From positions 21,204,001 through 21,268,000 of the forward strand of contig JBHGNT010000009.1 in the NCBI GenBank assembly GCA_043228905.1: DNA of 64,000 nucleotides, written 5' to 3'. The stretch comes from Azolla caroliniana (lineage: Eukaryota; Plantae; Polypodiophyta). Position numbers and translations under genes: made by a program. Position 1 is the first letter of the stretch. Every line of letters begins with the position of its first letter. Positions 24,163-47,150 of the stretch are shown here, piece by piece. Below the pieces are notes generated by a model, which saw only the letters and a list, made by a program, of their open reading frames with translations, was not told the origin of the DNA and made no database searches.

Positions 24163-27100
24163 TCATGCCCGTAACATACTCCCCCTCTTTAAAACATTGC
24201 ACTCTTGCAATGTAAAGTTAGGGAAGTTAGTTCTAAGAGTATTTTCGCGTTCCCATGTGGCATCTTTTATTGATTTATCCATCCATTTTATTTTAAATTC
24301 TCGGATTTCTTTAGTACGTAATTTTTTTGTTTTAACATCGAGAATTCTTTCTGGTACATGTGGTTTAGAAGATAATTCTTCAGAAGTAACCAGAGTTTTA
24401 GTCGTAACTGTATTGTCGCCAGAACCTAGAAGTTCTTTTAGACGACTCACATGAAAGACTGGATGAATTCCGACACCATCGGGAAGAGCGAGACGATAGG
24501 CTGATGACCCAATGCGTTTGAGGACTGTAAAAGGTCCACAAAACCGTGGGGCTAACTTAGCGCACTTACCCGTAGACAATGTCTTAGAATTGTGAGGTAC
24601 ACGTAAAAATACCTTCTGTCCAGGGTTGAATACACGAGGTTGCCTATGATGATCGGCATAAAAACGCGCTCTATCTTGAGCTATTTTTATATTATCTCGT
24701 GCAATATGCAACATATCTTGCATATCCCGAAGAAAGTTTTGCGTACTTCGCAACTCATCATGATGTATATTAACATCAATCGGGGCTCGTGGCTGAAAAC
24801 CATACATCAACATAAAAGGACTATATCCCGTCGACGTATGCTTGGAGCTGTTATAAGCAAACTCCAAAATTGGGAGATAACGTTCCCATTTTGTTGGTTT
24901 TGCACCAACGTATGCTCGAAGCATGTCCTCAATAATTTGATTTACTCGTTCTGTTTGTCCATCGGATTGAGGATGATCCGTGGAGCTCATGCTCAACGTA
25001 GTTTCTAACTTCTTAAAGACTTGTGTCCAGAAGTCACTAGTAAACTTTGGATCTCGATCACTCACGATATCCATCGGTAACCCATAAAAACGAAACAATT
25101 CGTCAACGAATTGGTAAGCCAATTCAGGAGCTGTTACCATGGTTTTAGTAGCAATAAATCTGGCCATTTTAGTTAGTCGATCAACGACAACCCAGATGGC
25201 ATCATGACCTTTTTGGGTGCGAGGAAGGCTAACAATAAAATCCATGGATATACTTTCCCACTTATTATTGGGAATGTCCAAGGGATGTAAAAGTCATGCG
25301 GCTTTAAGTCGCTCGGCTTTGTTAACCTGACACTGGTGACATTTAGTCACATAGCTATGTATGTCAGGACGCATCTTAGGCCAATAAAATTGAGTGGAGA
25401 TGAGAACGAGTGTACGATGTATTCCAGGGTGCCCTGCTGAGGGTGCATCATGGCATTCAAAAAGAATCCTCTTTTTGACCTCGGGTAAATCTGGAACACA
25501 AACCTTCCCATTACGGTAGAGCAAACCGTTAGCAATGTGGAAGTATTCCTTCGAGGATGTGGTGGTGTCTGTTCCAGACTCAACTCTTGCCCAGTATTTT
25601 GCGAAATAACTGTCATCAGGATACTTTCCTCGAAGGTGATCATAAAGATCTGATGATATTGCAGTGAAGCTAAGCGTGTTAACTTCACGGATGCGACTTA
25701 GTGCATCAGTGACAATGTTCATGGAACCTTTACGATATCGTATGGAAAAATCAAAGTCCTGGATGAGATCAGCCCATCGTGCCTTACGACCTTGCAGGTC
25801 TTGTTGGTCACAAAAATATTTCAAGCACTCGTGGTCCGTAGTTACCACAAAGTGATTTCCATAAAGATAATGGCGCCATGTTTTGAGCGCATGTATAACT
25901 GCAAATAATTCCTTTTCTTGAACGGTATACCGACATTGAGCAGAATCAAGTTTCTTACTCTCGAATGCTATTGGTTTACCATCTTGATACAAGACAGCAC
26001 CTATAGCATAATCGCTTGCATCGGTTTCAACCTCAAAAGGTTTTGAAGGATCGGGTAAAAGAAGTGAAGGAGCCTTGCAAACCAGGTCCTTGAGTTCCTT
26101 AAAGGCAAGGTCTAGTGTAGCATTCCACACAATAGGTTTTGTAGACTTACGCGTTTGACCTTTTAAAAGATCAGTAAACGGCGTCGTCAATTGGGAGTAA
26201 TTACGAAGAGACTTTCGCAAAAACCCCACAAAACCAAGGAATGATCGAACTTCTCGAATATTCCGAAGAGTGGGCCAAAGCTTGATTTTCTCAATGCGAG
26301 AAGGATCAATTTCAACTCCTCGTTCGGTTATGAGATGTCCTAGATAAGTAATTGATTTCTTGAAGAACTCACATTTTGAGATCTTCGCATAAAGTTGTTT
26401 GTCACGCAATGTTTGTAAAACAAAGCGGACATGTCTAGCATGTTCTTGTAATGTACGGCTATAAACTAAAATATCATCCAAGAAAATAATGACAAATTTT
26501 CCAAGTTGTTCTCGGAAAATGTCATTCATTTCTTGTTGAAAAGTAGCCGGAGCATTGGTCAAACCAAAAGGCATAACCAAAAACTCGTAATGGCCATAGC
26601 GCGTACGAAATGCCGTTTTAGGAACATTGTCCTCACTTATTCGTATTTGATGGTAGCCAGTACGGAGATCAAGTTTCGTAAAATACCGAGCTCCTTGGAG
26701 ACGGTCAATTAGATCGTCAGCCCGGGGCAATGGGTACGAATTCTTGATCGTCACTTTATTCAAGCGTCGGTAATTAATACACATACACCATGTGCCCTCT
26801 TTCTTTTTAACCAAGAGAACTGGTGCACCCCATGGAGATTTACTATAACGTATATAACCCATTCGTAAATAGTCCTTGAGTTGCTTAGATACCTCATCTT
26901 CTTCGGATCGACTTAAGCGATACGGAGGTATACTTATTGGTGCAACACTAGGTACAATATCTATACGATGGTCTATATTACGTTTAGGAGGTAACCCATC
27001 AGGTAGTTCACTTGGAAAAACATCATGAAAATCATTTAAGATTTCATCAAGTTGTTGTTGTTCAAAATATGTTAATTGAATCGGGACATTATCGATATTG

Positions 27101-28531
27101 TAAACGTGAATGTCCGGATCAAGTACACAATAATATAACGTAGAACAAGACAACTCGGATATTGATGGGCACGAGGAAACAATCGAGAGGGATTGTTTTT
27201 TTACACATTGAATAAAATGCGTACAATCGTTCAATACAAAAGAAATGGAATGACGAATCCAATCAATAAATAAAGAAGAGTTTTTATTATAAAACCAGGG
27301 ATAACCCAGTATTACATCGGTGGTACAAAGATTCATTACATGGAAGTCTACTTCCTCTATATAAGTATCAATAGAAATTCCTAATGAATGAATCGCCCCG
27401 TTGATGTATTGTACTCTTCCATCAGCCAAGTGCACCGTGTAGGTGTGATCACTTACGGTGGGTTGGATTCCCCATATCTGAACCAAACGATCATTCACAA
27501 AATTGTGTGAGCTTCCTGAATCAAATAAAAATTGTACGGGAGATCCATTGATATACCCGTTTGCACGTAGTAAATCATTGGGACCCAATACATAGTGAGG
27601 GAAAGAACATTGACAATTACTTAAATGATGTGTATAGACCTGAAGGACATTAGGAATCTGACCTTTATGGTCTGCAGCTTTAGCTTTGTTGTCGTGCTCT
27701 TTCCGTTGGAGCTTTCGACATTGATCTTTTGTATGACCCTTCTTTTTGCAGAATACACAAAAAGGATGTTGTCGCTTACAATCGCGATCCAGGAATTCGT
27801 TGGGTGTCTTGCGTTTCCCAACAAATTGCGACTGCTTAGTCCCGGGCGCTTCGTTGGGTTTGTTATGGTCCTTCTTCGAAGTGCGTTGATAGCGAAGAAC
27901 TATTTCAACGGCCTCTTCGAAGGATTTTGGATCCTTATTGTGCACTATCCAGTGATAGTCCGAATTGGGGATGCCATTGACAAAACAAGCTATCAACCAA
28001 TTGTCCCCTTCTAGACCCGATTTTTGGATTTGGGTTCTAGCATGGTGAACATAGTCTTCTAGCGAGGAAAATTTCCTGCTAGAGAGGTTCATTAAAGCTT
28101 GTGCTGCCTCGGTTCGAGAGGGAGGTTGCAGAAATTGGCCCTTAAAAACTGTGACAAAATCTGTCCAGGTATCGGGCAATTTCCCCATAGTACGGAGGCC
28201 ACGCCACCAGGCGGCGGCCTTACCCCCGAGTTCTCGGCCGACATATGCAATCTTCGTACTATCTGGCGTGGGATAGAGCTCAAAATGAGACTCCCATCGT
28301 CCCAGCCATGTGCAGATTGCTTCTTCGGTCCTTTCCTTTTTGTCTCCTGTAAATGGCTTAACGACAAATGATGGTTCACCTTGTCGCTCATCAGGTCTAT
28401 TAGTCTCACGTTGTAGACTAATGACACGTGCCTCAAGAGCACTCTGAGATTGCCGAAGTTCGGTCATTTGTTGAGCGGTGAAACTAAGGTATTGGGTTAT
28501 TTGTGCCAAATACATCTCAGTGGACATTTGT
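24163..28531 (-). pseudogene. gag-pol: Single-ORF gag-pol with chromodomain; in-frame TGA at 25294-25296; the first ~22 codons are displaced to 38019-38083 by the DNA transposon
   Basis: [27 protein letters not shown], integrase SDRD, and ERILD...KIKW...ATWE chromodomain. MAQINDPMSS...NPPG|QMSTEM joins in frame once the insertion is removed. Confidence 0.92.
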
Positions 28532-29583
28532 CCAGAACACGTTCGCGTTCACAAGTGGAAGGATTGCGCATTCCACTTGTAGAATCTTCTTAAAACGAAG
28601 CAAATACACCCTCTCTACAATAATTGGATGCACTAGTATCACATGTTCCTCAACTTGATAAGAATTTGCAAATATAAAAATACATGATAGATCTACGAGT
28701 GGAGATCATTAGAAATCATGCAAGTTTAGACATGTTGATAAGTTAATGTATCTAAATAAAGTTCAACTATGGCTCAATATGGCACTATTGTGCGACAAGG
28801 GAAACACTAACTTAAAGACTTATATTAATTAGGTAGGTTTTACAAAATTATGAGGTGTACTTGTATCCATACTAATAAAATGAGATATAATTTATACTTT
28901 GACCCATACGTGCATATATGTAATTGTCGAAAATGTAGGATAGTGCACATTAGGATAAGTGATTGGAATAACTAACTTATTAAAGTATTCAATACTTATA
29001 TTAAAAGTTGATCTAATCTATTCCTCAGTTTGTTCATATGGGATCAAACCATATGTGTATATAATTGTGCACAATGTAAGGCAGTGAACTTTAGGATAAT
29101 GTCGTGGAAATAACAAACCTATTAGGCTTTCATACCTATATTTAAAATTGATCTACTCTATTGCTTAGGTGATTCACACAAGATCAAACTCCGAACGATA
29201 ACGCAACTGGAACCATTATCAACACACTACACAATCTAAGCAGCAATGGAATAGAAACTAGACCTGTTTTAACAATATAAGACAAAGATCCATAATAACA
29301 ACATGGACAGTCATGGCAATAATTATAGGGCCATGTTCTGTTAAGGTTAGCTTGGACCAAAATCAGCCTCCATTTAAGCTAGTTCATGTTTCTCCATAAG
29401 TTTGGTAGTCAGCTATGCACGCGGTGAAACCAATATCATAAATCTACTAATGAGGTATATAAAAATAAAATTGAAACATATAGATGATTATAAAGAATAG
29501 AATCCACTAGGTAAAACCCAAAATTTGTATTAATAATGTGAAATCTTAACAAATCGTCAGTGTCATATTCTTTATAGAGTCTA

Positions 29584-32500
29584 TTACATAGCAATCAATT
29601 CATCTACGTCATTTTCTTCATCATCTTGTGTAGAACTGTCTTCGGCTATACGTGCATTGGTTTCCCCTGTTAGCCGGGCCAACGAAATATCTTCTATAAG
29701 CTCATCATCAAGCTCTATTAGCTCTCCCGGTTCGCCGGCTAACGGAGGAATAGGCTCTCGCGAAGCGGGTTGAAACCTTTCTGTATTGGCGAGGTTCTTT
29801 GCACCGACCTCCTCATCCTGGTCTGGGCACTCCCACAAAGCCTTAATCCGCATATTAATAAATATAACTTGGTCCTCGTCCTTCTCCAATGCAACTGTAT
29901 TCCTAAACAGCTTCAATGCACATGCTGACGTAGTTCCTATGATGTAAGTAACAAGAAGATTTAGTTGTCAAACGACAAAAGTGATTGGTTATCTCAAGAT
30001 CGTTACCCTAGTTCGAGGAATACCTGTGCCAGAAAAGAGATCTAATATCCAGTCTCCTTCGACAGAAAACATCTCGATCAAGCGCATCATAAGTCGTTGA
30101 GGTTTTTGGTATGGGTTGACAAGTCCCCGTTCTGTCGTGGTGACATGTCGCAATTTCCGAGTCACTGCTGGATATACCAACAGATTTGAACCTCCCACTT
30201 CATTAGAATGCTCTTTGATTCTCTGTTTTTTAATTTCATCGAAGTAGCCAACCGTTATGTATTCAATGGCATTAACGAACCGAAAAGTTGGCCCTCTATT
30301 TACATTGGTCTTGATCCTATAAAAAATAATTCATCGAGTTAAAAATAGATTCAACAACCTTAAGAATTGCAATATAATGAAAGACACCTATAAATAATCC
30401 TTACCATGCAAGGTTCTCGATGCCATGGCAACGAGATCTCAAAGCTTGAGCTACCGAGTACCCTTGGTCCATACTATGAAAGACAACTATTCGCCACAAG
30501 GATGCGGTCGTTAGCTCAGCGAAATCCTTGACCATCTTCTCCAATTGTTTAAACCTAAACGGTTCATCGTCGTATGATGACCCAGCCATTCGAAATCCGT
30601 AAGGAATATCCGCAATCATTAGCGTATATTCCTTCTTTGGCACCTTCTGGATCAAGTCGATGACATCACCGCAAACCACATTGTAGTAAAGATCTCTCGT
30701 AATATCTTTCTTGTGGCTAAATTTTTTAAACGAGCCATCTTCCTCCATTTCGTACGCCTTGACTAAGCGACGATCCTTTTCTTTTCTGGCTCGCTCGAGA
30801 TGTGCAAGGAAGGATGTAGGGAAATCGTGTATATCCTTAACTTCTCCTTGTTTCTTGCCTCGACACGGTTTCTAATAGAAGCAATAGGACATCAGGTATT
30901 ATTACGCAACCTCTACATATGATGAAAGGGTAATGAAAAAATATCAATACTAACCCAATCCTTGAATGCAATAAAATACTCTGATAACGCCTTATACGAA
31001 GACGTTAGAGGATAATCCTCGGTCACTTGTTCCCAAGTTATACATCCAAGTTGTTTCATCATTACTTCTTGGATCTTCATGTACACCTTATGACTGTAAA
31101 ATTAGAAATCAAGATTAGAACTTTGAATTACACCAGATAGACTACAATTTCAGTATTTGAAAGACTTACTTATTGAACTCGGTGACCATTTCTTCAAGGC
31201 TTAAATCTTTCGCCACAACCCTTGACAAAACGGACACAAGAAGCTGCTCGTCCTTAATACCTTGCATCGCTCTCCATAGACAGCTTCATGTCGTCTGCCG
31301 CTTCTTCAATTGTCAAGTCAATTCTCTTGGCGGCTTGTGACTTTAATTCTAGTTGAGGGTCAACCCTACATTTCTTTTGTCGTTGACCCTTTACCTCCTT
31401 ATTCTCCCACATTGAGAAGATTTGATCTTGGAGGTCCCATACTTCTCCATCTCTAAACGCCAATTGAAACCAAGATTCATACTTTCGAAGACCATCGGAC
31501 CTAACATTATCATCTACCACAATGCCGACTTCATGCAGACATTGACGTCGAAGGCCTGGATGTAACTTCACACCAAACTTTTGTTTCACATCTAAATACT
31601 CGTGGTGGAAGAACCGGATACGCTCAATAGACGACATTTTCTGCCTATAGTCATTATCATTATTATGGTCCCATGCCAACAGCTTAGCCTCTTCGGTTGT
31701 GAGCCCAACATATATTTTGCACTCGGCATACTTGAAGAAGAAAGTGGTTGGATGTTCTCTGACAAGTTGTCGACGTGCCTCTGCTGAATGCGATCCACCA
31801 ATGACAAAATAATTATATTGATCATGCTTTCTGATATCAAAATCTTCAATGGTTTCACATTCTTCAGGATCCACCATAACATTCTTCATTTTTTTCTTGA
31901 GATTTTGAACATGCATGCGATGAGGCTCTCTAATCTCAAGTGGTCTTCGACCTGTTTTTTCATCAATAGGGGGCCGATGGATGTGTGTTATAGGCAAATT
32001 AAATACTTGCCCTTTCCTGACCAGCTTCCGTTGCCTTAACTCTCTTCTTATTTTATTCTGCTCGGATGACAAAACACCCGAGGCCAGCTCGGCTCCTGGC
32101 GTCCCCTTATTATCCTCTTCTTCATTGTCACTTGTCGAATCCGTATCCGACATTTTCGTTGTCTTCTTCTTGGCTGGTCTTGACTGGACTTTGGATACCT
32201 TTTTAGTGGCCTTCAAGTGGGAGGGCTCTTCATCTCGTAGAGTTACATGGCCTTGTATATAAGGCCTCAAGGTAACAATCAGGTTTTGTGAGTTATCAAG
32301 TGCTTTTTTGAACACTTCAGGCCCACAAGATTCCTTTACTAAAAGGACTTCTGAAAGGAACACTTTGCGTACCCCCTTGGAGCACTCTATCATTACCAGT
32401 ATGTTGGCCGAATCTGCATCTTCGTAGTCAAATCGTAGAATTCGGCCATACATAAATGGAGTTTTTTTTCCTAGCTGCCCCTCACCCTTCTTCTTTGCTG

Positions 32501-34089
32501 TATACAATACGACTTTTTTCTTTGAGTCGACATATTGCATACACCATTCCTTGTCCGTTAGATCTCGGTCAGGAAGGTCTTCGCCTCCAGTAGCGGCGAC
32601 AATTTTCTTTTGGCTTACATCACTATGGGGCTGAGATTTTGTCTCTTCGTTAAATAGAAGCTTTTTTCCTCTCTTTATGGTCTCCGGAGTTACCTTGGTC
32701 TGGGCTTCGATTGGAGAACCTTGTATGCGAAGCTTAATTTTCTTCACGGGTCGGTCTGACAGATTCTCAAACGACCTATTTAAGAAAGTATATGCAAAAA
32801 CATAAGTTAGACAGTTACGTAGATTGAAGTTGTTATTATAATGAAGAACAGTTTCTAGGAGCAGTAACATATTCAAAAATCTATTCTAGGCAGGGCTATT
32901 CAACCTAGAAAATATATATCGTAATAAGTAAAACGGGTTATATATTCTTTTAAATAGTAGATATGACTTATATAGATTCTAAACCTATATTGATGAGAAT
33001 TTGCCATAGTGAATGCAATTTGTAGATCATTTTCTACTATTTTAAGCTAAAGTAGGTCAAAAAACACCTATAATTAGAGCTTGTATTTGTTTAGAAGTAA
33101 GTAAACTCAACATAAAAAGACTGATTTTGACAGACAATTTGATAACATTTCCACCCCGTAAACGATTTTTCTCTCTCAAAGGCTACACTTTAAACACGAA
33201 CTCGATACGCCGTATCGAGTTCGTGTTTAAAGTTTGAATTTTAAACACGAACTCGATACGGCGTATCGAGTTCGTGTTTAAAGTATAGGTTTTAAACACG
33301 AACTCGATACGCCGTATCGAGTTCGTGTTTAAAGTTTGAATTTTAAACACGAACTCGATACAGCGTATCGAGTTCGTGTTTAAAGTATAGGTTTTAAACA
33401 CGAACTCGATACGGCGTATCGAGTTCGTGTTCATAGTGTAGGTTTTAAACACGAACTCGATACGCCGTATCGAGTTCGTGTTGAAAGTGTAGGTTTTAAA
33501 CACGAACTCGATACGCCGTATCGAGTTCGTGTTTATCGAGTTCGTGTTTAAAACCTACACTTTCAACACGAACTCGATACGGCGTATCGAGTTCGTGTTT
33601 AAAACCTATACTTTAAACACGAACTCGATACGGCGTATCGAGTTCGTGTTTAAAAGGTATGTTTTAAACACGAACTCGATACGCCGTATCGAGTTCGTGT
33701 TTAAAGTGTAGGTTTTAAACACGAACTCGATACGCCGTATCGAGTTCGTGTTTAAAACCTACACTTTAAACACGAATTCGATACGGCGTATCGAGTTCGT
33801 GTTTAAAACCTACCCTATGAACACGAACTCGATACGCCGTATCGAGTTCATGTTTAAAACCTATACTTTAAACACGAACTCGATACGGCGTATCGAGTTC
33901 ATGTATACAATACAAATATTTATACACGAACTCGATACGCCGTATCGAGTTCGTGTATAAATATTTGTATTGTATACATGAACTCGATACGCCGTATCGA
34001 GTTCTTGGGAAACGAAACATATTTAAAAAAATGTCCACAGTGTCAGAGGCCTACCTGGACTCCTCGCGCTCGACTCTCTTGGAAGACAT
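29584..34089 (-). CDS. ParB/Srx-like domain plus beta-class amino (N4C/N6A) DNA methyltransferase; exons 34089-34055, 32775-31170, 31093-30955, 30871-30405, 30316-30024, 29936-29584; one frameshift near 31277
   Basis: All introns are GT-AG and phase-compatible. Motifs in order: VVCGDV, IADIPYG (motif IV), WIKTN..NAIEYI, YQKPQRLM..LIEMFS, DLFSGTGTTSACALKLFRNTVALEKD (motifs I-II). Motif IV before motif I is the beta-class order. VIGGSHSAEA resembles the ParB/Srx GxHR motif. Confidence 0.85.
33187..34003. repeat. Array of 16 palindromes AAACACGAACTCGATACG(C/G)CGTATCGAGTTCGTGTTT at a 51-bp period
   Basis: Directly visible. The ~14-bp AT-rich linkers occur in both orientations. The array lies in intron 1 of the methyltransferase gene. 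Confidence 0.97.
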
Positions 34090-34220
34090 GGTTGATCGTG
34101 TTGTGTGGAGGCGGATATCGCGCTTTCGTGCTTTGTGCCTTGAGTGCTCTGTGTGCTCTGTGTGCTCTGAGTGCTCTGTACGCTCTGTACGCTCTGGTGA
34201 GTGAAATATGATGAGGTCTT

Positions 34221-34230
34221 CCTATTTATA
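34221..34230 (-). promoter_or_regulatory. TATA box of the methyltransferase gene
   Basis: The minus strand reads TATAAATAGG about 135 bp upstream of the ATG at 34089, followed by a CAGAGCAC-repeat leader. Confidence 0.6.
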
Positions 34231-34879
34231 GGGATTGAACCCATGGTTAAAGTAACCATAGTCATCTTAACCAATGTTGGTAACTTTGAGGATAGTTAGT
34301 TTGTAACCATAGTCACATTAACTATAGTAACTTATGATTGTATTAATGATTACAAAGTCAAACTAATATATTGATCAATCTTTTATACTCATAACAACCT
34401 ACAATCACTTCAAAGGTTATGAAGGAGACAATGATAGAGGTTCATGAATGTACCAATGATTGATTACTAAAAGCAAAAAATTTTATGACTCTCAATAGTT
34501 ATGTATTAAAGATGCGGGCATGAATTAACCAATGAGTGAGCCTTAAAGAATCAATGAGTGAGACGTTCTATATCAAAATGGGTGTCATTAATTAGCCAAT
34601 GATTTTAACATTAATCCAACATATTCAAGGCTTGTTAATGATTAGTTTTATATTTTACTTGATTTAACATCATTTAGATCTAGTTTATATAATGATTGAT
34701 AATTTAAGTTAAATTACTTTATTAAAAATAATTTTTAGATGTATTGTATTTTAATAGAATATTACATAATATAGACATTCTATTGATTTGGCTTTTGTTT
34801 AGAGAGAAGTTTATGTTTAGGGAGGAGTATATGGTTAGAGAGGAGTATAACTTAGAGAGCCCTATCTAGACCTTAAGCC

Positions 34880-37660
34880 ATGAGTGAAGATTCACCGTTC
34901 TCGATTGAAGAATATTGTTTGTCATCAGACCCATCGTTTTCTACTGAAGAGTATTGTTTATCAACAGAGTCACCATATTCGATTGAAGAATATTGTCTTT
35001 CGACCGACTCACCATATTCTATCGAAGAATATTGTCTGAGCTCATCTACAGGGAATGCAAATAATGACACATGTGAAGAGTTCTCTATTGAAGAATACGA
35101 TATTAATAAAGATACCGGGAATGAAGGAAGTGCCCAGGAAACATTGAATAACATTGGCGATGGTCAGAACAGAGAATTAGACTGTAACAAGGTTACACCA
35201 ACCTCTATGCAGGAAGAGAAATCTGGGAGCCCTATGCATATTAGAAGAATCCCACGAAGAATTCGTCTGGCTAGATTTAGCTTGGTGACATCAGATAAAC
35301 AGATTGGATTTGATGTCAACAAAATATGTTGTGCCCGTGGTTGTATGTCTATGATTGGAAAATCAAAGTTGCGAGAATTAAGGCGATACTATTTTTCGAT
35401 GACCGGTGATGAGCAAGACACTTACCTCGGATCACATATGCAACTAGTATCTGACAAATGTACGGGGATCAAAGTATCATTCGAGTATTATATCTTCCAT
35501 GCGCAACAGATATGTAGAGTTGCATTCAAAATTGTGTTATGTGTTAGTAACATGCGGCTACATAGAGTACAACAACGTCTACTTAGTGGGGATCAGATGC
35601 TCAATTGTAAAGAGGTTCCAAGTATGAAAGGTGCAATTGGAAGACTAGCTATTGGCTGGATGAAAACTTACTTTCAGTTAAATTGTGAAGTAATGCCCAC
35701 TACAGGTAGGATGCATCTTTCTGATAATTATACCCGTCGGGAAGTTTATGATGTCTATCGATCTGAAATGCTGGGCTCACGTAATAAGTCTATCACCTAT
35801 AGCCAATTCACAAGATTATGGAGAGCTCGGTTTTCAAATGTTATTATTCCTCGTAAAGTACGTATGGGTTATTGCTCCATTTGTGCAAATCTTAAAAGTT
35901 TGGCTAAAGGTGCAAAGACATCACTGGAAAAGGATACGAGTAAGAAGTTACTACAAGAGCATCGTGAGGCACAATCCTTAAAACGAAGGAAGGCGATGCA
36001 TCATAGAGAGAAGTGTTTGAAGAGGCCTGAACAATACATGTGCTTAATGATAGATGGCATGGACCAGAAGAAGACATGCTTGCCGCATATGCGGAGGCTC
36101 CCCAAAGATGTCAATGATGAGTGCCTTGTTCAAATGCACTTGGTGGGATGCTTGGCTTATAATAGGTCTGTTCGACCTCACGTCTTCATTACTTACCCCA
36201 ATGTTCACAATGACCCTAACCTAACAGTTACAGTGATTCACCGAGTTTTGATGTCTTGGGGACAACCTTTCCCCCCTGTTCTATACATTCAATTGGACAA
36301 TACTGCTAGAGAGAACAAAAATTCAACTGTATTTGGCTATCTAAGTATGTTGGTCAACCTAGAATTGTTTAGGAAAGTGAAAGTCAATTTCCTTTTGGTT
36401 GGCCACACACATGACCATATAGATCAGATGTTTAGCACATTCTCCAGACAGTTGTCTCGGCATGATGCTTTCACTTTACCTAAACTATTTGATGTCATTT
36501 GTGATGCATATACACCACGCCCAAAAGTGTTACACTTGAAGGAGGTATATGACTTTAAGAGATATATATTAGATGGGGGTGGTGGGAATGTTAAAGTGCT
36601 TGCTCAGTTAAACAATATAAGTTTCAATCACATTTTTTTGATAAAGAAAAATGGAATAAGTGGTTCTACACTTTTGTATGCTAAACAATATTCATCTTCT
36701 ACAACATGGGAACCTGAAGGTGGTTGCCAGTTATTACTTTGTATGCCGAGTACAATTGTCCATGGAGCTAAGCAAATGCCAATTGAGAAGAAAGGACAGT
36801 TGTAGAGCGACTTGGTATTAGAACAAAAACGGTCATGGCTCCAAGCCTTAGAAGAAAAAAGAAAACATATTGAGGCCGCCAAGAAATATGCCGCACAACA
36901 AGACACGTCATGGTGGGATGTATTTTATAGTGATCAGAAAGAAATTATAGACAATTGTGTATCTGTTGATAATTGGAATTTGGAAACGCCATTCACATGG
37001 TCGCTGCAACATGATCGCGTAAATAGAAGTCCGGAGCGACTAGTAAATGCGATTAATGACAGCTTGGTCCATCCACAACAAAGAGACATTTATGTGGGAC
37101 CAAGGATGACCAAAGCAGCCGAAGCTAGATGGCAAGGAAATTTGCAAGAGCTCACCGCGGGGATGTTGATTGCAACGCCGGCTGATGAGAACTCACATGG
37201 CCACCAATTTTGGGTTGGTAAAATTCTAGAAGTGCTAATGCATGAAATAGATAACACGATCAAGTCTATAAATGTTCATTGGTACAACACTAGAAGTGCA
37301 AATGCTTTTACAGGTAAGTATACATTGGAGATGATTGAATGCCAAACAAGAAGGGGAGGTAGGAAGAGGAAGCGAAACATTCGTAACACCTCGACCCTTG
37401 ATATCTCTGATGTGGATATCATCGTGTACGACTTCACACTTACAAAAGCCGGACGATTAAGGAAGTCAACAATAGATATAATAAAAGAAAAATTACCAGG
37501 TCTACAAGGTGGCTCGAGTCGAAGGCAAACGAGATCTGCTACATATAATCTAGAGTCAAACCATTTGGTTTATGACGAAGATAATGCACTGATTGGTACA
37601 TCCGAGGATGATGAGGAGGAATCGTCATTGTATATTAGTTATAGTAGTGATTCTCCGTAA
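34880..37660 (+). CDS. Sola-like DDD transposase with a C-terminal beta-barrel (BAH/Tudor-like) region; in-frame TAG at 36803-36805
   Basis: Cys-rich CCxxxC, ICRVAF, CSIC, IDGMDQ, YIQLDNTARENKN and FLLVGHTHDHIDQMFS. The ORF at 36812-37660 is in the same frame (FWVGKILEV...VHWY). Confidence 0.85.
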
Positions 37661-40032
37661 AGGAGTGATCATGAATGTATATTTGGCTATTAAGTGTAAC
37701 TACATTCCGCTTGTAACAAATCGAGTAATATAAAATCATGTGTTTTGAATTCTTATGATTTCCCAAAAATCGTTTCTTATAAAATAACATTGGTTGTAAA
37801 GTTTGTGATATAAATTGAGAATGTATGTTTTTGAAATTCGTCTTTTTTTAGTTACTTCTAAATCACGAAAATAGTGGATTTTTAACCTTTTTCATAGTAT
37901 GTTTGAACTTGTATGATACTGGTATCAATGTGTTTTGTAAAATCATTGAAAAACCCCTAAAATTTCCCTTCTCCTTCCATTTATGCGCGATCCTTCCACT
38001 TGTGAACGCGAACGTGTTCCAGGAGGATTCCCTTGAGTTCCTTCCGCTTGAGCGGATGACATCGGGTCGTTAATTTGAGCCATTAAAGATTATTTCTGGA
38101 AAAGAAATAGGATAAGGTCAGAGAGATAGTCATAACATCATGTCGTGATGTAAACATATCATGGGCGAGCATTAATCGATATGATTATCTCACGTCAATA
38201 CCCCTCTAGACGTATGAGATGAGGTTCAAGATCAGGTTACTATGGTAACACAAAGGTGTTTTAAAAACCATGGGGGTGACAAATAAATGTCTTTCCCTAA
38301 TCTCTATATCGATTTTTTCATGGTGGCTCCCCGAGGCTCAACCATGTATGTTCGCGTCATGAATAGTTTATACACGAAAAAAAAATGTTAACAATAAACT
38401 ATGTTTCGGTGCCCACATAAGTGGTTTCGGCTCTTTAAGTCCTATTACGAGGACCCCGAGGTGCACTTAGACCTTAAGTCTAAACATGTGTTATAGTCAT
38501 ATGTATCAAGGATGTTGTATGGTCTTGGTCATATTTGAACTCGAGACCTCGAGAACAAATACATTAAACACTTGAGCCAACCAAGTAAGTTGCTCTTCTC
38601 GAATGCTTAATGTTTGATGCGTATAAGAGATATGCGAGGCAATTGATCATATATGTTTTTTTTAAAAGAACATATATGTCAAGGGTCCTTATTTCGCCCT
38701 CATTTACCAAAACTGTGTTGGTACGTTACCTAACCTCAAGTCTCGTAATTACGATGGCATACGCCAAAGTGCAACCTAATGGTCAAGCCAAATGAGCCCT
38801 TGTTTCGTAGTAGTCTCACGTGGGCCATCACATGGTCACGTCATTACGAATGCCTCTCGTAAGAACGAGCTCATGGTGGCATCGTATCCATGTAACGAGG
38901 GAGGGATGTTGGATACGTGCGTCATTGGAGCGACCTCACTTGAAGTGGGTCAAGCCCTACGTACTCAACATCATTTTGGCTATTGGCGTTTCTTTACGTA
39001 ACGAAATCGAGGTCGTCAACGGGGTTATCAACAATAAAAAAATGTTGAAAAAGGGATGGTGACAACGCCATTCTCACAAAAATGTGAGGACGGCCACCAA
39101 CATCCTTTTCCCGACCATGACAACTTTCGATATAATCATGTAATAACGAATATACACATATGTTTACTTATCACATATATACGATCAAATACGTATATAT
39201 GTGACCACATATGCCTATACTAAACATATCGTTATAGTAAATAGCCACAAATGATGTGATCGAGATACGTAATCAAGGTATATACCTCTACGCACACGAA
39301 ACATCCACAAATAAGAGATCATCGTAATACGCAATGGAGGTATTGACCTCTTACGCATACAAGACCAAACGCATATCGTTTACAACAAATCAAGGTATTA
39401 AACTCATACGCAAACGTAACATATGTTCGTGAACGTAATATGTAATTGAGGTATTAACCTCGTACGCATATGACACTCATCACATATTATTAATATGTCA
39501 AACGAGGTATTGACCTCGTGCACATATGTAAACGTTTTAGATAATCAATTAAAGACCACTACAACATCATTGCTTAATGAAAAAAATTACATATAAACTA
39601 AACACATGATTAGATGGGAGAAGAGAGAATAGAAAGAAAAATTATGGAAAGAGTTACCGAAGTTCTTTGTTGATCGTTGTCTGGATCAAGGCCAACCGCA
39701 CAACGATCGATCAACATCAATCAAAAGACAAATGAAAAACAAAGAAACATTAGTACAAAAATCTGATACCAAATATTATAGATCTAGGTACTAAAGTAAG
39801 CTTAAGATAAGGATAAAGAAATGAAAGATAGAAAGGAGAAAGAGAAAGAAGGGTGCTGATCCACCCGACCACCCCCGAGCGAAGGGATCGAGACGGACTC
39901 GAGCCTCGATCGGCGTCCCATACCACCGCCGTGGCGTCGAGTCGTACCTGGTGCAGGCGCGCTCGCTACGAGAGTTGACCCACCACAGGAGCAGAGTCTC
40001 GATGTAGTCAAAAGATGATCAAATGAGGGTAG

Positions 40033-43000
40033 TGTAGAGAAATCGATGCTCCGATTAACCTTCACCACTCGGCCACAACCGAGTAGGCGCGAATCAATAC
40101 AGCAGAAAATAGGAACCACAGAGAAAGGACACGATTGCACAGAGATTAACGTGGAAAACCCTAGACGGGAAAAACCACGGGAGTCCAAGACTCCAAACCA
40201 AAACTATGCACAGAGAAGTATACAAATGGCGAGCTGCAAGGCGACGACCTTGAGCTCGTTGTCCTCGCCACAGGCGGCGGTATTACACAGAGGCTTCAAC
40301 CTCTTCCTCTCTCACGCTCTATCTCCCTCTCTCTCACGTCTACTCTCTCTTCACTCCTCTTGAGTGGAAAAACAGAAAAATGAGTAGCAACATTAAAACT
40401 GTTTGCCCTAAGTCATATTTATACACATATGACTTTGGGGCTATTTACAACTATAGCCTCAAGGGCCCTTAGCAAACATATTCACGGATATGTCCCCGCA
40501 TCCGGATCTCTCTCCGGTACATTCGTCATCCGGCTCCGAAGCCGGGGTCTTCATCATCCGGTTCCGAAACCGAAAACCGGGCTCGTCGGCATTCATATCC
40601 GACATCCGACCATCCCATCAGAAGGGACCGTAATCCCAACAAACTCCCCCTTCACTTCGGCATGGGATGTCTCTCCAATCCGATCCTCTTCCGGCATGCT
40701 TCCAGCTTGTCGGGTGTGAGCACCTTGGTCAGCATATCCGACCCGTTCTCGTCCGTGTGGACCTTCGTCAGCACGAACTCCTTGTCTTCTATCCTTTCGC
40801 GGATCCAGTGATATCTTCGCTGGATGTGCTTCGTCCGGGAGTGATAGGCCGCGTTCTTCGCAAGGTGGATTGCACTCTGACTGTCGCAGTAGAGTCGGTA
40901 CTCCTCCTGCCGGATACCGAGCTCTCTAATGAAGTCCTTCATCCATATTATTTCCTTGCCGGCTTCAACAGCCGCCATGTACTCCGCCTCCGTGGTTGAC
41001 AACGCAACCGTCTTCTGCAGCCTCGACTGCCATGAAACAACTCCCCCTGCATACGTCATCACATACCCTGATGTGGACCGGCTGGTATCTGCATCAGCCG
41101 ACATATCCGAATCGGTGAAGCCGTCGAGTTCGGGCTTACCGGAGCCGAATCGGAGGCACACGTTTGCCGTGCCCTTCAGGTATCAGAGTATCCACTTGGC
41201 CGCGTTCCAATGCTCTTTGCCGGGATTGCTCATGTACCGGCTCACCACTCCGACTGCATATCCGATGTCCGGTCGGGTACACACCATTGCGTACATCAAG
41301 CTCCCGACGGCTGAGGCATACGGCACTTTCATCATATCCTCCTTTTCAGCCTTTGTCTTGGGACTTTGCTTGTTGGACAGCTTGCAGTTTGCCGGGAGGG
41401 TCGATCCGACCGGTCTTGCTTCCGACATGTTGAACCGTTTAAGCACCTTTGTCACGTACTTTTCCTGTGACAGCCACAACTGCTTCTTGCTCCGGTCCCG
41501 GATGATGTGCATCCCTAGTATTTGTCTCGCCGGACCCAGGTCCTTCATTGAGAAGGTTCGGTGAAGAGCCTTCTTCAGCATCCGTATCTTGGCCTGGTCC
41601 CGTCCGACGATCAACATGTCGTCCACGTACAGGAGGAGTATTAGAAAGTCTCCTCCTTCGAACTTCTTCACAAACACGCAGTGATCCGACTGCGTTTTGT
41701 GGTAGCCTTCGTCGGTCATGAAAGAGTCGAACTTCCGGTACCATTGCCGGGGAGCCTGCTTCAGTCCGTAGAGGCTCTTCTTCAACCGGCATACCAGGTG
41801 CTCCTTCCCTTTCTTCTCGAATCCTTCCAGTTGCTGCATGTAGATCTCTTCTTCGAGGTCGCCATGAAGGAATGCCGTCTTCACGTCCATCTGTTCTATC
41901 TCGAGGTCCATGCTTGCCGCTATGCTCAGCACTGTCCGGATGGAGGTCATCTTCACTACCGGGGCAAATATTTCGTCGAAGTCGACGCCCTTCTTCTGCT
42001 GAAACCCCTTCACCACGATCCTGGCTTTGTATCTCGGAGGGTTTCCGGCATCTCCCGGTTTCAGCTTGAACACCCACTTGTTTCGAAGTGCCCGCTTTCC
42101 TTTCGGCAACTCCACAAGTTCATATGTGTGGTTCTCATGCAGGGAATCCATCTCGTCCTGCATGGCACTCAACCACCTGCGGCTCTGGGTGTCATGCTTT
42201 GCTTCTTCAAAGCTCTCCGGCTCCCCCTCGTCGGTTAGCAACAGGTGCTCTGGTTCCGGAAATCTCCGGGGGGCCCTTCTCTCTCTTAGAGGATATCTCC
42301 GTTCCGGAGCTTCGGTAACCGGTTCTTCCGATTCTTCTTCATCCGAATCCATTTCGGGATCGGGGCCGGTTCCGGTATCATTTTCATCTTCTTCGGCCGG
42401 TTCTGTTTCTTCACCGGCTTCGGCCGGATCCTCGAGTGCTAACCGGTCCCTTGCCGGTCGGGACTGCTCCTCGTAGAGTTGATCCTCACCGGTCGTCTTG
42501 GAGCTCTTCATCTTCTTCTCCGACTCCCAGTCGGCGAGTGTCTTGTTCTCCATGAAGATGATATCTCGACTCCTGAATATCTTCTTGTCGACCGGGTCCC
42601 ATACTCGGTAGCCGAACTCGTCGTCGCCGTAGCCGAGGAATATGCATGGCCGGGTCTTTGGATCTAGCTTTCCTCTCCGGTCCTTTGCCACATGCACGTA
42701 TGCGAGACACCCGAACACCTTCAGATGCCGGTAGGATACTTCCCTACCGGTCCACACTCTCTGCGGCGTGTCTCCGTCCAAAGGTAATAAGGGTGATCGG
42801 TTTATCACATATGTCGCCGTCGACATTGCCTCAGCCCAAAACCCCTTGGGTAATTTCGCATGCGCCAGCATACTCCGGACCCTCTCCATTATGGTCCGGT
42901 TCATCCTCTCGGCCAGCCCGTTCAGTTCCGGCGTCTTCGGCACAGTAAACTCAAGCCGGATTCCCTTCGAGCGACAGTACTCCTGGAACTGCCCCCGGTA

Positions 43001-45364
43001 TTCCCCTCCGTTATCCGCTCGTATCGCTTTCAGCTTCTTGCCGGATTCTCTTTCCACTCTCGCGTGGAGTTCTTTGAAGACGGACAACACTTGGTCCTTT
43101 GTCTTCATCGGTGCCGTCCACAGTCTTCGGCTATGATCATCTATGAATCTTACGAAGTACTGGGCTCCGCCATGTGACTTCGTTTCTACCTGACACACAT
43201 CGGTGTGCACCAACTCCAATGGTGCGCTACGTCTCGTCGGTGGCCTTGAGTGGAAGGAGGTTCGGTTCTGCTTACCGGCCAGACAATCGGTGCACTTCTC
43301 CAGGTGCACATGCTTCACTGGAATAAGGTTGTCTTCTGCAAGCCTCTTCATCCCCTTCTCACTCATGTGGCACAGTCTTTTGTGCCACAGCTCACCGGCA
43401 GTGTCGGCTGCCACATTCAGCTCTTCCGGACATAACCGGGCATTCATCAGGTACAGTGTGTTGATCTTTCGGGCCCGAGCCACTATCAGGCTCCCTTTGC
43501 TGAACTTCATTACGCCGTTCCGGATGCTACCTGTGTAGCCTTCATCGTCTAGCCTCCCGGCCGAAATCAGGTTCAATCGAACCTCCGGAACGTGTCGGAC
43601 ATCCTTCAGCAGCATTTTGCATCCGGTCGGGGTTGTCAACCACACGTCTCCTATGCCGGCAATCCGGCACGTACCTTCATTTCCCATCCGAACACAGCCA
43701 CGCTCACCGGCTGTGTAGGATGAGAAGTATCTTCTTTCCGGGGTCAGGTGGAACGACGCTCCGGAATCGACCACCCAGGTCATCTCATCGCCGGCAATGT
43801 TTAGCTCACCTTCTTCGGTGATGAGCATGATTTCTTCCTCACTTGCCGCGAGTGCCGTCGTTCCTTTCCTGTCCTGCCCTCGCCGATCCGAACCATTCCG
43901 GTACGTGGCTCCCCGGTAAGCACCGTTCCGTTCCGAAGACTTCTTCGAATCGGTGTCGTCGGCTCCGTTGTCTTTTCGGTAATGCCGACAATTCTTTCGG
44001 AAGTGCCCCGGCTTCCCACAGTGGAAGCATGTGGGTCTTCCTCTTGACTGCGACCGGGTCCCCGACTTCTCCCGTCTTTGCAGACTCCGGTTCCATTCTC
44101 TTCCCCGATCCGATTCGGTAAACAACATCTTCGGATCGGAGGCCGGTTCTTTATCTCTCCGACGCGCTTCTTCGTTCAAGATACTTGTCTTCACCGTTTG
44201 TAGGGACAAGTTATCTTCAGTGCAGGAGGTGCTGAGAGTCACCACCAAGTTCTCCCAGCTTTCCGGCAATGTACACATCAGAATGATGGCTTGCATTGCA
44301 TCCTCCAGCGGGAACTTGATCGCCGCAAGCTGGTTCACGAATCCCATGAACGTGCTTACGTGTTCCACCATACTCTCGCCGTCCCGGTACTTGAGGTTCA
44401 CTATCTTCCTCATCAGGGAGGTCCGGTTCAACGCATTCTTCCTCTCGTAGAGGCCCGACAGCTTCTTCCACATCTCATATGCGTTGGTGTCATTCGCCAC
44501 ATGTTGTAGAACACTCACGTCTACGTATTGCCGAATGGTTGCAACGGCTTTCCGGTTCAGAAGCCACCATTCCGACTCAAGTACTCCCTTCGGTATTTCC
44601 GACCTGTCTATCGGTTCGTACAGGTCCCGAACAATCAGAAGATCTTCCATCTTGATCTTCCAGTCGGCGTAGTTCTGCGCATTCAGCACCATCATCCCCG
44701 GCTGCCCGCTGCCGCCGCCTTCCATTTTCTGCAACAGTCGCTCTGATACCAGTTTGTAGAGAAATCGATGCTCCGATTAACCTTCACCACTCGGCCACAA
44801 CCGAGTAGGCGCGAATCAATACAGCAGAAAATAGGAACCACAGAGAAAGGACACGATTGCACAGAGATTAACGTGGAAAACCCTAGACGGGAAAAACCAC
44901 GGGAGTCCAAGACTCCAAACCAAAACTATGCACAGAGAAGTATACAAATGGCGAGCTGCAAGGCGACGACCTTGAGCTCGTTGTCCTCGCCACAGGCGGC
45001 GGTATTACACAGAGGCTTCAACCTCTTCCTCTCTCACGCTCTATCTCCCTCTCTCTCACGTCTACTCTCTCTTCACTCCTCTTGAGTGGAAAAACAGAAA
45101 AATGAGTAGCAACATTAAAACTGTTTGCCCTAAGTCATATTTATACACATATGACTTTGGGGCTATTTACAACTATAGCCTCAAGGGCCCTTAGCAAACA
45201 TATTCACGGATATGTCCCCGCATCCGGATCTCTCTCCGGGTACATTCGTCATCCGGCTCCGAAGCCGGGGTCTTCATCATCCGGTTCCGAAACCGAAAAC
45301 CGGGCTCGTCGGCATTCATATCCGACATCCGACCATCCCATCAGAAGGGACCGTAATCCCAACA
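40033..45364 (-). mobile_element. Young Ty1/copia (Tnt1-like), full length; LTRs 40033-40641 and 44755-45364
   Basis: TSD GGTAG at 40028-40032 and 45365-45369. PBS TGGTATCAGAGC. PPT GGGGGAG. The LTRs differ only by a 1-bp indel as far as can be seen by eye. Confidence 0.96.
40652..44734 (-). pseudogene. gag-pol: Copia gag-PR-IN-RT-RNaseH polyprotein with a single in-frame TGA at 41183-41185
   Basis: CFHCGKPGHFRKNC, VDSGAS, HHCC, RADNGGEY, YVDD, FTDSD. It reads KWIL*YLKG, consistent with CGA>TGA. Confidence 0.93.
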
Positions 45365-47150
45365 GGTAGCTAGGCCTCTTATTTATAGCGATACCCAAGG
45401 CCCCCATGCAAGTTCACACTTGACCTAATGGGTTGTCTCAATCCCGAGGATTAAAAGTAATCCTCCCCTTCTTTACACTCTCGTTTAACCCTCACACTTA
45501 TCCACGTGTATAGAATACTACGGTAATTCTTACCACGGGATATTATATGGTCATGCCCGTAACACGGAGGGACCTGTCTCCCAACAGAGCCGGCAACCAA
45601 GCACGACCGGCTACGAAACCAATCGGGCGGAGACCGGACGGACAAGACTAACAATCATCGATAGCTTCGGCACATACCAGAGGATGTGCGGGTTCGGAGG
45701 GGGCGAGTGTCGTACTGTAATTCGCACACTACGTAAAAAATTGCATTTTTGGTCTCTCCGGATAGGACATGGAGTACTCGGTGAGAACCAGAAGGAGGAA
45801 CCGGTAAGGACCGGACCCGATAAGGAGAACTGGTGAGAACCGGATGAAGAAGGCCGGTGAGAGTCTCTCACCGGATGAAGAGACATATTTGTAAATAAAA
45901 GAAAGTATAAATATACATAGATTACATGCATAGGGCAAGATTCAAACCTTGCACCTCCATGTTTATAATGTAAAGCCTTACCATTACACTAACATATCAT
46001 TAGTGTTAAAAAAGTAAACGTCCCACATAGAAAGGTAAGGTCATGCTAGGATAAACTTCAGTTAGAAGAAAACGCATGATAAAAGAAAAGGCTACGCATG
46101 CACATGTAACGTGCATGAACACCATAATTGATAAAAACGCATCAAGTTAGAAAAAGTAGGATCGCTTTAGAAAAAGCATGTTAGAGAAAGCATAGAGTTT
46201 ATCTATAGAAAAAGCATGCATTGTTAAGACTCTCTTATCACTATATAAGGATGAGGAGCACAATGTAATGGATGTGGAATATTTGGAAATTGGATTTATT
46301 TCCTAAAACACCAATTAATAAAATATAATCGTGGGATTCATGAAGTATTATATAATCTATCTCTTCCAATCTATGATAAATTGTCATTAGGATTCTAAAT
46401 ATTAATAAATATGATCATCTATACTTGTGGGATTCACAAGTTTTTAATATCTCTCTTTTAATCGAAATTCATATTCTTATAATCTATTCATAACCAAACT
46501 TGTCTCAAATTCTTCTTTCTCGTAGTGCAAAACCTCAGTGGTTCCCACCCAACTCACGCAACGATTTGGTGCCGAAAGGCACGACATCGTTCACTGACAG
46601 CATCCTCAATACGGTTGCCGAACACGACTGTTATAGTTTTTCTAGACGGGTTCAGTGGTTACAATCAAATTCGTATGCACCCGAATGATCAAGAAAAGAC
46701 AACATTCGTAACGGAATGGGGTGTGTTCATAGTCGTAGTCATGATGTTTGGATTAAAAACGACACCCGCCACATTTCAACGAATCATCTCCGACTTCGAG
46801 GACTTCATTCCGGCTTTCATGCAAGTCTTCCTTGATGATTTCGCGGTGTATGGGCAGCAGTTGGAGCACCTTGCGCATTTACGATTGTGCCTTGAAAGAT
46901 GTCGGCAGGCACGACTCAACCTAAATCCGGCAAAATGTGCTTTCCACGTTACAAACAGTGCTTTACTCGGTCACATTGTCAGTCAGGATGGCATTTCCAT
47001 GGACCCTAACAAAGTTCAAGCAATCTTGAATGCGCCAGCCCCAACCACAGCCAAAGCACTTAGCTTATTTTTAGGTCAAATACGATGGCCTAGCGGTATG
47101 CTCCGATACCTCGCTGATTTCGCGACCCCCTTACACGCAGTAGTCCACAC

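Follow-up and report, generated by a model that had tools for sequence, protein, structure and literature searches.

What role could a bacterial-type DNA methylase gene play inside a plant DNA transposon, and is it a regular part of that transposon or a gene picked up once? We addressed this question using a locus of the fern Azolla caroliniana, located in a 64,000-nucleotide stretch of contig JBHGNT010000009.1 (the window), where an initial annotation had described a terminal inverted repeat (TIR) DNA transposon with intact TIRs and a target duplication. The ends of the element bear this description out, while the genes between them are broken.

Structure of the transposon and its transposase

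The element spans positions 28536-38018 (~9.5 kb) and is inserted into the gag gene of a Ty3/gypsy chromodomain retrotransposon, whose gag-pol (24163..28548, minus strand), i.e., the host context outside the element, is broken near its start by the transposon. The 36-bp left TIR (28536..28571, plus strand), with the terminus AACACG, pairs with the right TIR (37983..38018, minus strand), with 35 of 36 bases identical, and a 28-nt core of this TIR occurs twice in the window versus zero times in 100 shuffles. Target-site duplications (TSDs) of CCAG flank the left (28532..28535) and right (38019..38022) ends, and the empty gypsy site is represented by contigs with one CCAG, with loose ends at 28535 (runs X10 and X11); in run X3, 51 contigs diverge immediately past 38018 (agreement 0.37). 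A 2-bp CA duplication is geometrically possible and was rejected, since the same terminus is present at 22 other junctions where the base directly outside AACACG varies (A at 12, T at 5, G at 3, and C at 2); we therefore place the terminus at AACACG, with a 4-bp TSD. At the two other loci with both ends, three of four TSD bases match in one (L011), whereas the other (L006) shows no match, in repeat short-read contigs that may be chimeric. The TIR was also sought in viral contigs, and was absent from these.

Only the ends are intact, and the copy in the window is dead: its methylase gene has lost 2 nt at 31277/8, which shifts the frame, as well as 30 nt near 31883, which does not, and its transposase contains an in-frame TAG at 36803-36805. 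The initial annotation overlooked this broken state, and also an array of 16 palindromes in intron 1 of the methylase gene.

The divergent Sola-like transposase that had been proposed is an intronless gene of 926 codons (34880..37660, plus strand), matching DUF7869 with an E value of 1e-51. It contains three acidic motifs, DGMDQ (36053), QLDN (36290), and GHTHDHIDQ (36401), which may be those of a Sola1-type (DDD) transposase. Sola elements are described as having a 4-bp TSD (PMC3627910; also the Ectocarpus supplement, PMC12477816), and the 36-bp TIR with the 4-bp CCAG duplication fits the TIR and TSD pattern of Sola1. An AWWT-type target preference has been described for Sola1 (PMC3845634) and is not seen here, with a TSD of CCAG and mixed flanks at the 22 junctions, where the last flank base is A in 12 of 22 cases (p 0.018 versus an assumed 31% background). 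We take AWWT to be a subgroup trait, because the brown algal element Sola1-1_Ec32 is filed under Sola-1 without AWWT and shows the same bias to end in A. The transposon likely belongs to Sola1, and we refer to it as Sola1-like. Relatives of the transposase with 57% identity are present in the model fern Ceratopteris. Of the 30 bins across the transposase half, 3 are covered by a single, presumed RNA run (X23), which speaks neither for nor against expression. Atlas look-alikes of the transposase tail are unnamed clusters, and serve as leads only.

A spliced gene for a predicted ParB-fold methylase

On the minus strand, divergent from the transposase, we predict a methylase gene encoding 964 aa, with one frameshift read through. 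The initial annotation gave this gene six exons and the beta-class motifs in the order DIPY, KP..L...LI...S, and DLFSGTGTT, and our analysis agrees, with DIPY, YQKP, and DLFSGT|GTT in this order and all five introns bounded by GT-AG. Exon 1 (34089-34055; 12 codons) is placed by a TATA box, an ATG, a GT donor, and phase only, and lies outside all related loci; the TATA-like box is located upstream of this exon, between the two divergent genes (34223..34230, minus strand). Exon 2 (32775-31170), defined by the gene model, the related copy L007, and structure, encodes a basic/acidic N-terminal region, a ParB/Srx-fold domain (about 32040-31600), and a helical domain. Exon 3 (31093-30955) encodes a helical linker region, has identical boundaries in L007, and aligns with an unbroken homologue, P0015. 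Exon 4 (30871-30405), placed by the gene model and its motifs, contains the catalytic motif IV, DIPY (30610-30599), and exon 5 (30316-30024) contains YQKP (30111-30100) and the SAM-binding motif I, DLFSGT. Exon 6 (29936-29584; gene model and L007) encodes the end of motif I (GTT), with the motif straddling intron 5, and then the last strands, an acidic tail, and the stop.

The motif order, IV (aa 682), then YQKP (819), then I (DLFSGTGT, 842), is that of a permuted Rossmann fold, and the methyltransferase assignment made earlier is upheld by both sequence and structure. PF01555 is matched above its curated cut-off by exon 5 (E 3.2e-8) and by 6 of 30 long homologues; an exon 4 query found nothing in a word-indexed search of low sensitivity. 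The model of P0015 aligns with M.BceJIV over 219 residues (Z 22.1, rmsd 3.6), i.e., a full beta-class fold of ~220 residues, followed by CcrM (Z 21.6) and MboIIA (Z 20.3), with METTL3/14 lower among the matches, and the best sequence matches of the Ginkgo homologue are RsrI, MboIIA, and CcrM (E 2-5e-6). M.BceJIV, CcrM, M.MboIIA, and M.RsrI (all 6mA) and M.PvuII (4mC) share the IV-I motif order, with fold Z of 18-22, but identity is ~15-20%, and the plant protein has DxPY for DPPY, lacks a restriction partner, and is fused and spliced.

The fusion to a ParB-like domain, also part of the initial annotation, was recovered by structure only, this region being unmatched by sequence in Pfam, the PDB, and phage records. 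The model of the window domain (pLDDT 86.7) matches Noc (E 3.4e-4) and ParB (E 9.1e-4) in one search, and PadC, KorB, and Pnob8 (Z 7.9, 7.1, and 6.8) in the other, the best match having an rmsd of 3.0 over 92 aligned residues; top matches of both searches were Noc, ParB, KorB, PadC, and sulfiredoxin. These Z-scores are below 8, a range that the search tool calls common, and residues 100-240 of P0015 reach Z 9.6 with PadC. At the nucleotide-binding motif, GGSHS (31799-31785), Ser occupies the place of the arginine in 44 of 69 rows, with Arg outside the five commonest residues, making a ParB-like CTP clamp doubtful; the predicted likeness to ParB is therefore limited to a DNA-binding dimer. Atlas look-alikes of this region are DUF3723 clusters, again leads only.

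All 17 family rows have Asp, and none has Ser, as the first residue of motif IV, and because this motif is D-x-P-Y (x = I, F, L, or A) and never SPPY, the predicted methylase leans to 6mA over 4mC, at about 60:40. The likeness to the rotifer and Marchantia 4mC enzymes that had been suggested is consequently weak. N4CMT of rotifers is a host gene product with SPPY that marks transposons for silencing (PMC8885841), and MpDN4MT1 of Marchantia is a host 4mC writer, also with SPPY (bioRxiv 2021.02.12.428880). Both share with the plant family that they are eukaryotic PF01555 beta-class enzymes of bacterial origin, whereas the plant family is transposon cargo with DxPY; we reject a closer kinship, since the motif differs and N4CMT matches the Ginkgo homologue only at E 0.35.

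Motif IV is also non-canonical: 9 of 17 rows retain three of its four canonical positions, Cys stands in for Tyr in 6 rows and His in 1, and the canonical second Pro is never present, so that individual members, or even the entire family, may be without catalytic activity. The aromatic residue of motif I varies as well. The accessory protein could then bind the element while inactive as a methylase, its fold acting as a DNA-binding or base-flipping shield against silencing. VANDAL accessory proteins shield elements from silencing by other means. Methyltransferases carried by DIRS elements have been described as likely inactive (PMC4738411), and Dam domains of retrotransposons, which belong to another family, failed to produce 6mA in E. 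coli (bioRxiv 10.64898/2026.05.21.726589). The Dam domains of DIRS and LTR retrotransposons resemble the plant cargo in being prokaryotic-type adenine methylases proposed to favor expression of their own element, but they belong to an NPP-motif family of retroelements, and DAM-LTRs are reported as absent from Streptophyta; the accessible part of that text makes no mention of ParB, PF01555, or Sola. We consider a purely protective, inactive protein unlikely, given that the motif IV Asp is invariant, its Pro3 is kept in 16 of 17 rows, the GxG of motif I and YQKP are kept from Chara to ferns, and the full fold is under strong constraint, as follows.

Related copies and selection on the methylase gene

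An independent, TIR-linked copy, L007, with 80% DNA identity to the window copy, contains the left TIR, the full methylase gene (exons 2-6), and one palindrome, in the same position and orientation as in the window. Its exons 2-6 are open (962 aa, no stop), all four covered introns and the intron-1 acceptor are in the same places, and indels are found in introns only. Between the window and L007, dN/dS is 0.028 across the methylase domain (235 aa with 12 changes, most of them conservative; dS 0.82), 0.029 for the ParB domain, and 0.078 overall at dS 0.93; for the transposase, compared with L002, it is 0.154. Two further loci, L006 and L011, contain both TIRs and remnants of both genes. Judged from these coding sequences, the methylase gene is conserved cargo under strong purifying selection, and the earlier view of a mobile, multi-copy element with a spliced methylase as its regular cargo, present in other TIR-bounded copies, is borne out.

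These copies also bear on whether the methylase gene stems from a single capture of host or foreign DNA, in the manner of Pack-MULEs, and is hitch-hiking without a role. Such a capture might be read from the pseudogene state of the window copy and from the fetched loci, none of which contains two full genes together on its short contigs. It is largely refuted, and very improbable, since L007 is open with the same introns and a dN/dS of 0.028, remnants persist in TIR-bounded derivatives, and contig coverage from runs X3 and X10 is similar in magnitude for the two genes (a measure that is not a copy number). Relatives of the methylase are present in Adiantum, Ginkgo, Riccia, and Chara, with multiple copies in Chara, and the same pairing with a transposase is reported in Ectocarpus. 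For example, the Riccia methylase R1sor_010796 sits between the DUF7869 tags R1sor_010795 and R1sor_010797. A methylase tag adjoins a transposase tag in 1 of 3 cases in Riccia, in 0 of 4 in Adiantum (where 2 transposase tags were seen), and in 0 of 14 in Chara (1 transposase tag seen). Brown algae account for 0 of the 24 named relatives, out of at least 150 matches listed, and a metagenome scan with Chara-type patterns returned no relative.

Palindromes in intron 1 and a proposed model for self-methylation

Intron 1 of the methylase gene contains 16 CpG-rich palindromes (33189..34004), each of 23 bp with 10-bp arms and a 3-bp spacer, at a spacing of 51 bp. CpG o/e is 2.86 in this array versus 0.69 in the transposase gene, the array is >4 kb from both element ends, and the palindrome has 0 copies elsewhere in the window. 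All six related loci that reach the intron-1 region contain it (31 copies), with arm columns 87-100% conserved, the middle spacer base 45% conserved, and the spacing between copies not conserved; as L001, L011, and L017 are one family, these loci amount to about three to four independent cases. The palindrome is the likely binding site of the predicted ParB-fold methylase.

We propose, with a probability of roughly 55%, that in intact members of this family the predicted ParB-fold methylase binds its own intron-1 array and methylates the DNA of the element, with 6mA likelier than 4mC. A dimer of the ParB-plus-helical part would recognize the two-fold symmetric palindrome, as ParB, Noc, and KorB do with inverted repeats, and binding would tether the methylase beside the divergent promoter region that it has in common with the transposase. 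The mark or the bound protein may then keep this promoter region from full 5mC silencing, or may tune transposase expression, and deletion derivatives that have lost most of both genes and retain the palindromes could be served in trans.

Alternatively, an active enzyme could have another target (the TIRs, the excised transposon, target DNA, host loci, or RNA), with the array being bound by the transposase or being a passenger satellite. Beta-class folds do include RNA writers, the link of the protein to the array is indirect, and retention of the array is silent on which protein binds it, because non-autonomous copies also need transposase sites. We hold this to be rather improbable: ParB-type dimers suit sites with two-fold symmetry and a spacer of fixed length, the array lies far from either end, and inverted-repeat arrays are also found beside ParB cargo in red algal Plavaka elements, which have a different transposase.

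Extending self-methylation to the whole family, Sola1-like transposons may have carried an active, ParB-guided methylase through streptophytes (Chara, liverworts, ferns, and Ginkgo), writing 6mA or 4mC at a parS-like array by the transposase promoter, countering 5mC silencing, and supplying land plants with a mobile, so far hidden source of a bacterial-type mark placed at specific sites, a broader reading to which we give somewhat less than an even chance. Enzymatic 6mA or 4mC in land plants outside Marchantia sperm is disputed. The family is testable, with the intact allele L007, selection on the catalytic domain, a 23-bp candidate site, and the Ceratopteris transposase relatives. An active protein would give transposons a way around silencing that differs from VANDAL/VANC, and could serve as a compact, site-directed marker of DNA. 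Even an inactive one would account for a gene family that is conserved, yet unannotated, in large plant genomes.

Relationship to known systems

The novelty implied by the initial annotation does not extend to the layout or to the idea of self-marking, both of which are already published for Sola1-1_Ec32 of the brown alga Ectocarpus (2025), where the authors propose that the cargo protein binds and modifies its own element (PMC12477816). Likened by description and not by protein sequence alignment, the two elements share a Sola-1 (here Sola1-like) identity, a 4-bp TSD in which A is favored as the last base, and an accessory gene that runs opposite to the transposase and encodes a ParB-like domain plus an N4C/N6A methyltransferase in one protein, of 1104 aa in Ectocarpus. 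Both termini begin with AAC (AACCG-CGGTT versus AACAC-GTGTT in the window), but Sola1-1_Ec32 is 21.5 kb with 282-bp imperfect TIRs, and its account, as far as accessible, mentions no palindrome array and contains no selection test. Our analysis adds the range in land plants, the evidence of selection, an intact natural allele, and a defined candidate site; our literature search, with subscription papers mostly out of its scope, found no land-plant report of such a transposon. For green algae, PMC12477816 cites Iyer et al. 2011.

Phage ParB-methyltransferase fusions, found at ParB-terminase loci (PMC4738411), share the order ParB_N then PF01555 and are a plausible kind of donor. The methylase of Streptococcus phage Javan93 (QBX22681.1) matches the plant family profile with a probability of 97.8 (E 6.5e-13), but this 418-aa protein is intronless, has canonical GGHQR and DPPY motifs, and lacks the 250-aa helical insert of the plant family. 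Its ParB part gave no alignment with the plant profile, and an origin from an already fused phage gene is not supported, since the methylase part alone aligned.

Binding and marking of their own DNA by algal transposons has been proposed in print, as far as accessible without a test (PMC12477816; bioRxiv 2025.02.11.637652). In the PAG2/PAG3 cassette of red algal Plavaka elements, inverted repeats arranged in tandem next to the ParB gene are proposed as its binding sites (bioRxiv 10.1101/2025.02.11.637652). This cassette is likewise DNA-transposon cargo with a PF01555 methylase and a ParB-like domain, but these are split over two proteins (PF01555 with SET, and ParB with a 2OG oxygenase), and the transposase is of the EnSpm/Plavaka type. 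Further cargo-bearing families are listed in the supplements of the Bostrychia paper (bioRxiv).

Element boundaries and relation to published systems

The initial annotation described a TIR DNA transposon with a spliced ParB-methyltransferase cargo gene. Our analysis confirmed that this feature is real and was correctly read, and that its layout has already been published for Ectocarpus (PMC12477816). There, the Sola1-1_Ec32 element has a 4-bp target site duplication and, opposite the transposase, a gene encoding a 1104-aa ParB-like and N4C/N6A methyltransferase protein, which is proposed to bind and modify its own element. A Bostrychia preprint (bioRxiv 10.1101/2025.02.11.637652) likewise describes PF01555 and ParB cargo genes, with inverted-repeat arrays adjoining the ParB gene. 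Both the design and the self-marking hypothesis are therefore already in print. We found no report of such cargo in a land plant or in Chara in the literature searched, which did not reach Iyer 2011, Bao 2009 or the Bostrychia supplements. Our findings extend this kind of element to land plants, and add evidence of selection, an intact allele and a candidate binding site.

The element (28536-38018) is bounded by 36-bp terminal inverted repeats that differ at a single position and is flanked at both ends by CCAG; the TIR core occurs twice in the window and in none of 100 shuffles. It interrupts the start of a gypsy gag-pol gene, where excising the element together with a single CCAG brings the frame back, and the empty gypsy site is present in public contigs. 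A scan of metagenome contigs identified 22 TIR-bearing loci, and since the base just outside AACACG is variable among them (A in 12, T in 5, G in 3, C in 2), we place the terminus at AACACG and the duplication at 4 bp. In sequencing run X3, 51 contigs depart from the element directly after 38018 into unrelated flanks, indicating that members of the family have inserted in many places.

Plant retrotransposons are nested in one another across the window, which also contains a PPR gene. The two LTR-like repeats of the host gypsy are ~99% identical, which suggests that its insertion was recent, but the element may already have been present in a parental gypsy copy. These direct repeats lie at 23722-24176 and 39774-45564. 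A copia element (40033-45364; LTRs 99.8% identical to each other) splits the upstream one, so that the nest is young and has three levels. Of the long ORFs scanned, just one looks like a host gene, the PPR-repeat ORF (57972-60119, plus strand, 715 aa), and about five short telomere-like AACCCTA repeats occur at 12804-12845.

The transposase

The transposase gene (34880-37660, plus strand) is intronless, matches DUF7869 (E 1e-51) and contains three acidic motifs, and it is interrupted by a TAG at 36803-36805. In locus L002 the frame is open for 826 codons spanning the position of this stop, and comparison of the two copies gave a dN/dS of 0.154. We identified 78 relatives, the named ones being from ferns, Riccia, Chara and marine invertebrates, with the closest named relative in Ceratopteris (57%), which makes a fern the likely source of the sequence. 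We provisionally class the protein as Sola1-like.

Two minor features were seen in this gene. Four 39-bp repeats at its start (34888-35074, plus strand) encode an acidic (S/T)-x-E-E-Y-C-L repeat, and a conserved region, FWVGKI...VHWY, lies downstream of the catalytic domain (37100-37500, plus strand). Two Riccia members of one transposase cluster carry a BAH-domain label in UniRef; Pfam identified no BAH domain in this C-terminal region, and its Atlas matches are unnamed clusters. The region may be a chromatin-reader domain of the transposase.

The cargo gene, its homologues and its linkage to the transposase

The cargo gene lies on the minus strand and has six exons with all five introns GT-AG, and reading through one frameshift gives a product of 964 aa; exon 1 is predicted from a TATA box, an ATG, a donor site and phase only. 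Two lesions are present: loss of 2 nt at 31277/8, which shifts the frame, and loss of 30 nt near 31883. Contigs that retain these bases were found at the first site in all four runs and at the second, as loose ends, in three of four; both lesions thus belong to the window copy or its subfamily.

An independent copy, L007, with 80% DNA identity to the element, retains the left TIR and carries the cargo gene in the same position and orientation, with identical exon 2-6 boundaries and 962 aa without a stop. Apart from the two lesions, indels between the copies are confined to introns, which are 61-78% identical. Nei-Gojobori analysis of this single pair gave a dN/dS of 0.078 overall, 0.029 for the ParB region and 0.028 for the methylase domain (dS 0.82). 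That the gene is a one-off capture we regard as highly improbable.

Searching exon 2 against 1.84 billion representatives returned 370 matches, and PF01555 scored above cut-off in 6 of the 30 long matches scanned. Named homologues are from Chara braunii (at least 14 locus tags), Riccia sorocarpa (at least 3), Adiantum nelumboides (at least 4) and Ginkgo (at least 2), and alignments to one-chain homologues such as P0015 span every window exon junction from exon 2 onward. In exon 2, the N-terminal part (aa 12-13 to 245; 32775-32040, minus strand) is conserved in close relatives, with 70% identity to L007 and many short matches, and is missing from the Chara, Riccia and Ginkgo matches. One homologue of the helical region, P0127 (Logan, 533 aa), is a fusion with a SAM (sterile alpha motif) domain.

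Linkage of the two genes was seen in several settings. Both TIRs are present in L006 and L011, loci of ~3.5 kb in which pieces of each gene persist, and in Riccia one of three methylase tags (R1sor_010796) is flanked by two DUF7869 tags. The tags listed for Chara and Adiantum, which included just 1 and 2 transposase tags respectively, showed no such adjacency, and none of the loci recovered spans the two genes in full. Contig cover, which is not copy number, is similar in magnitude for the two genes in runs X3 and X10. L001, L013 and L017 join L006 and L011 in a family of ~3.5-kb non-autonomous derivatives with the same TIR, in which palindromes and short pieces of the two genes are kept.

A palindrome array in intron 1

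The initial annotation overlooked an array of 16 palindromes in intron 1, each made of two 10-bp arms around a 3-bp spacer, spaced 51 bp apart in 12 of 15 gaps. CpG o/e is 2.86 in the array vs 0.69 in the transposase gene, and the palindrome occurs nowhere else in the window. It is present in all six related loci that reach the intron-1 region, three of which are one family; across these 31 copies the arm columns are 87-100% conserved, and spacer sequence and spacing vary. Palindromes are also retained in derivatives that lost most coding DNA. The array resembles a protein-binding site; the obvious candidate to bind it would be a ParB-type dimer, with the transposase as the alternative.

Predicted folds, catalytic motifs and function

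The P0015 model (pLDDT 75.8) matches beta-class methyltransferases (CcrM, E 2e-11), with Z scores of 22.1 for M.BceJIV, 21.6 for CcrM, 20.3 for MboIIA, 18.4 for PvuII and 18.1 for rotifer N4CMT; this predicted fold does not discriminate between a 6mA and a 4mC enzyme. Some enzymes with an Asp motif make 4mC. The first residue of motif IV is Asp in all 17 family rows and SPPY occurs in none, and since SPPY characterizes most 4mC enzymes and DPPY 6mA enzymes according to PMC8885841, we lean to 6mA as the predicted mark.

The model of the window N-terminal domain (pLDDT 86.7) matches Noc, ParB, KorB, PadC and sulfiredoxin; scores are modest (Z 7.9), and the top six matches are all in the ParB/sulfiredoxin superfamily. 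The ParB arginine is replaced by Ser in 44 of 69 rows, and we therefore make no claim of a CTP clamp. The domains come in the same order in a phage ParB-methylase fusion, whose methylase could be aligned to the plant family (probability 97.8), unlike its ParB part.

We consider it somewhat better than an even chance (about 0.55) that the ParB and helical parts of the cargo protein bind the array, and that its methylase would mark DNA close to the divergent promoter region, where the predicted mark may help the element remain expressible or tune its transposase. An active enzyme with another target seems unlikely. A non-catalytic binding role is similarly doubtful; in its favor are the unusual motif IV, whose second residue is never Pro and whose fourth varies (10 Tyr, 6 Cys and 1 His among the 17 rows), the Cys variants in Chara copies, and the negative result of an E. 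coli assay on a retrotransposon Dam family that is unrelated to this one. One subfamily, with named members from Chara (P0232, P0230, P0235, P0077, P0237 and P0066), has motif IV DFPC instead of DFPY, and its members are predicted to be dead or altered enzymes.
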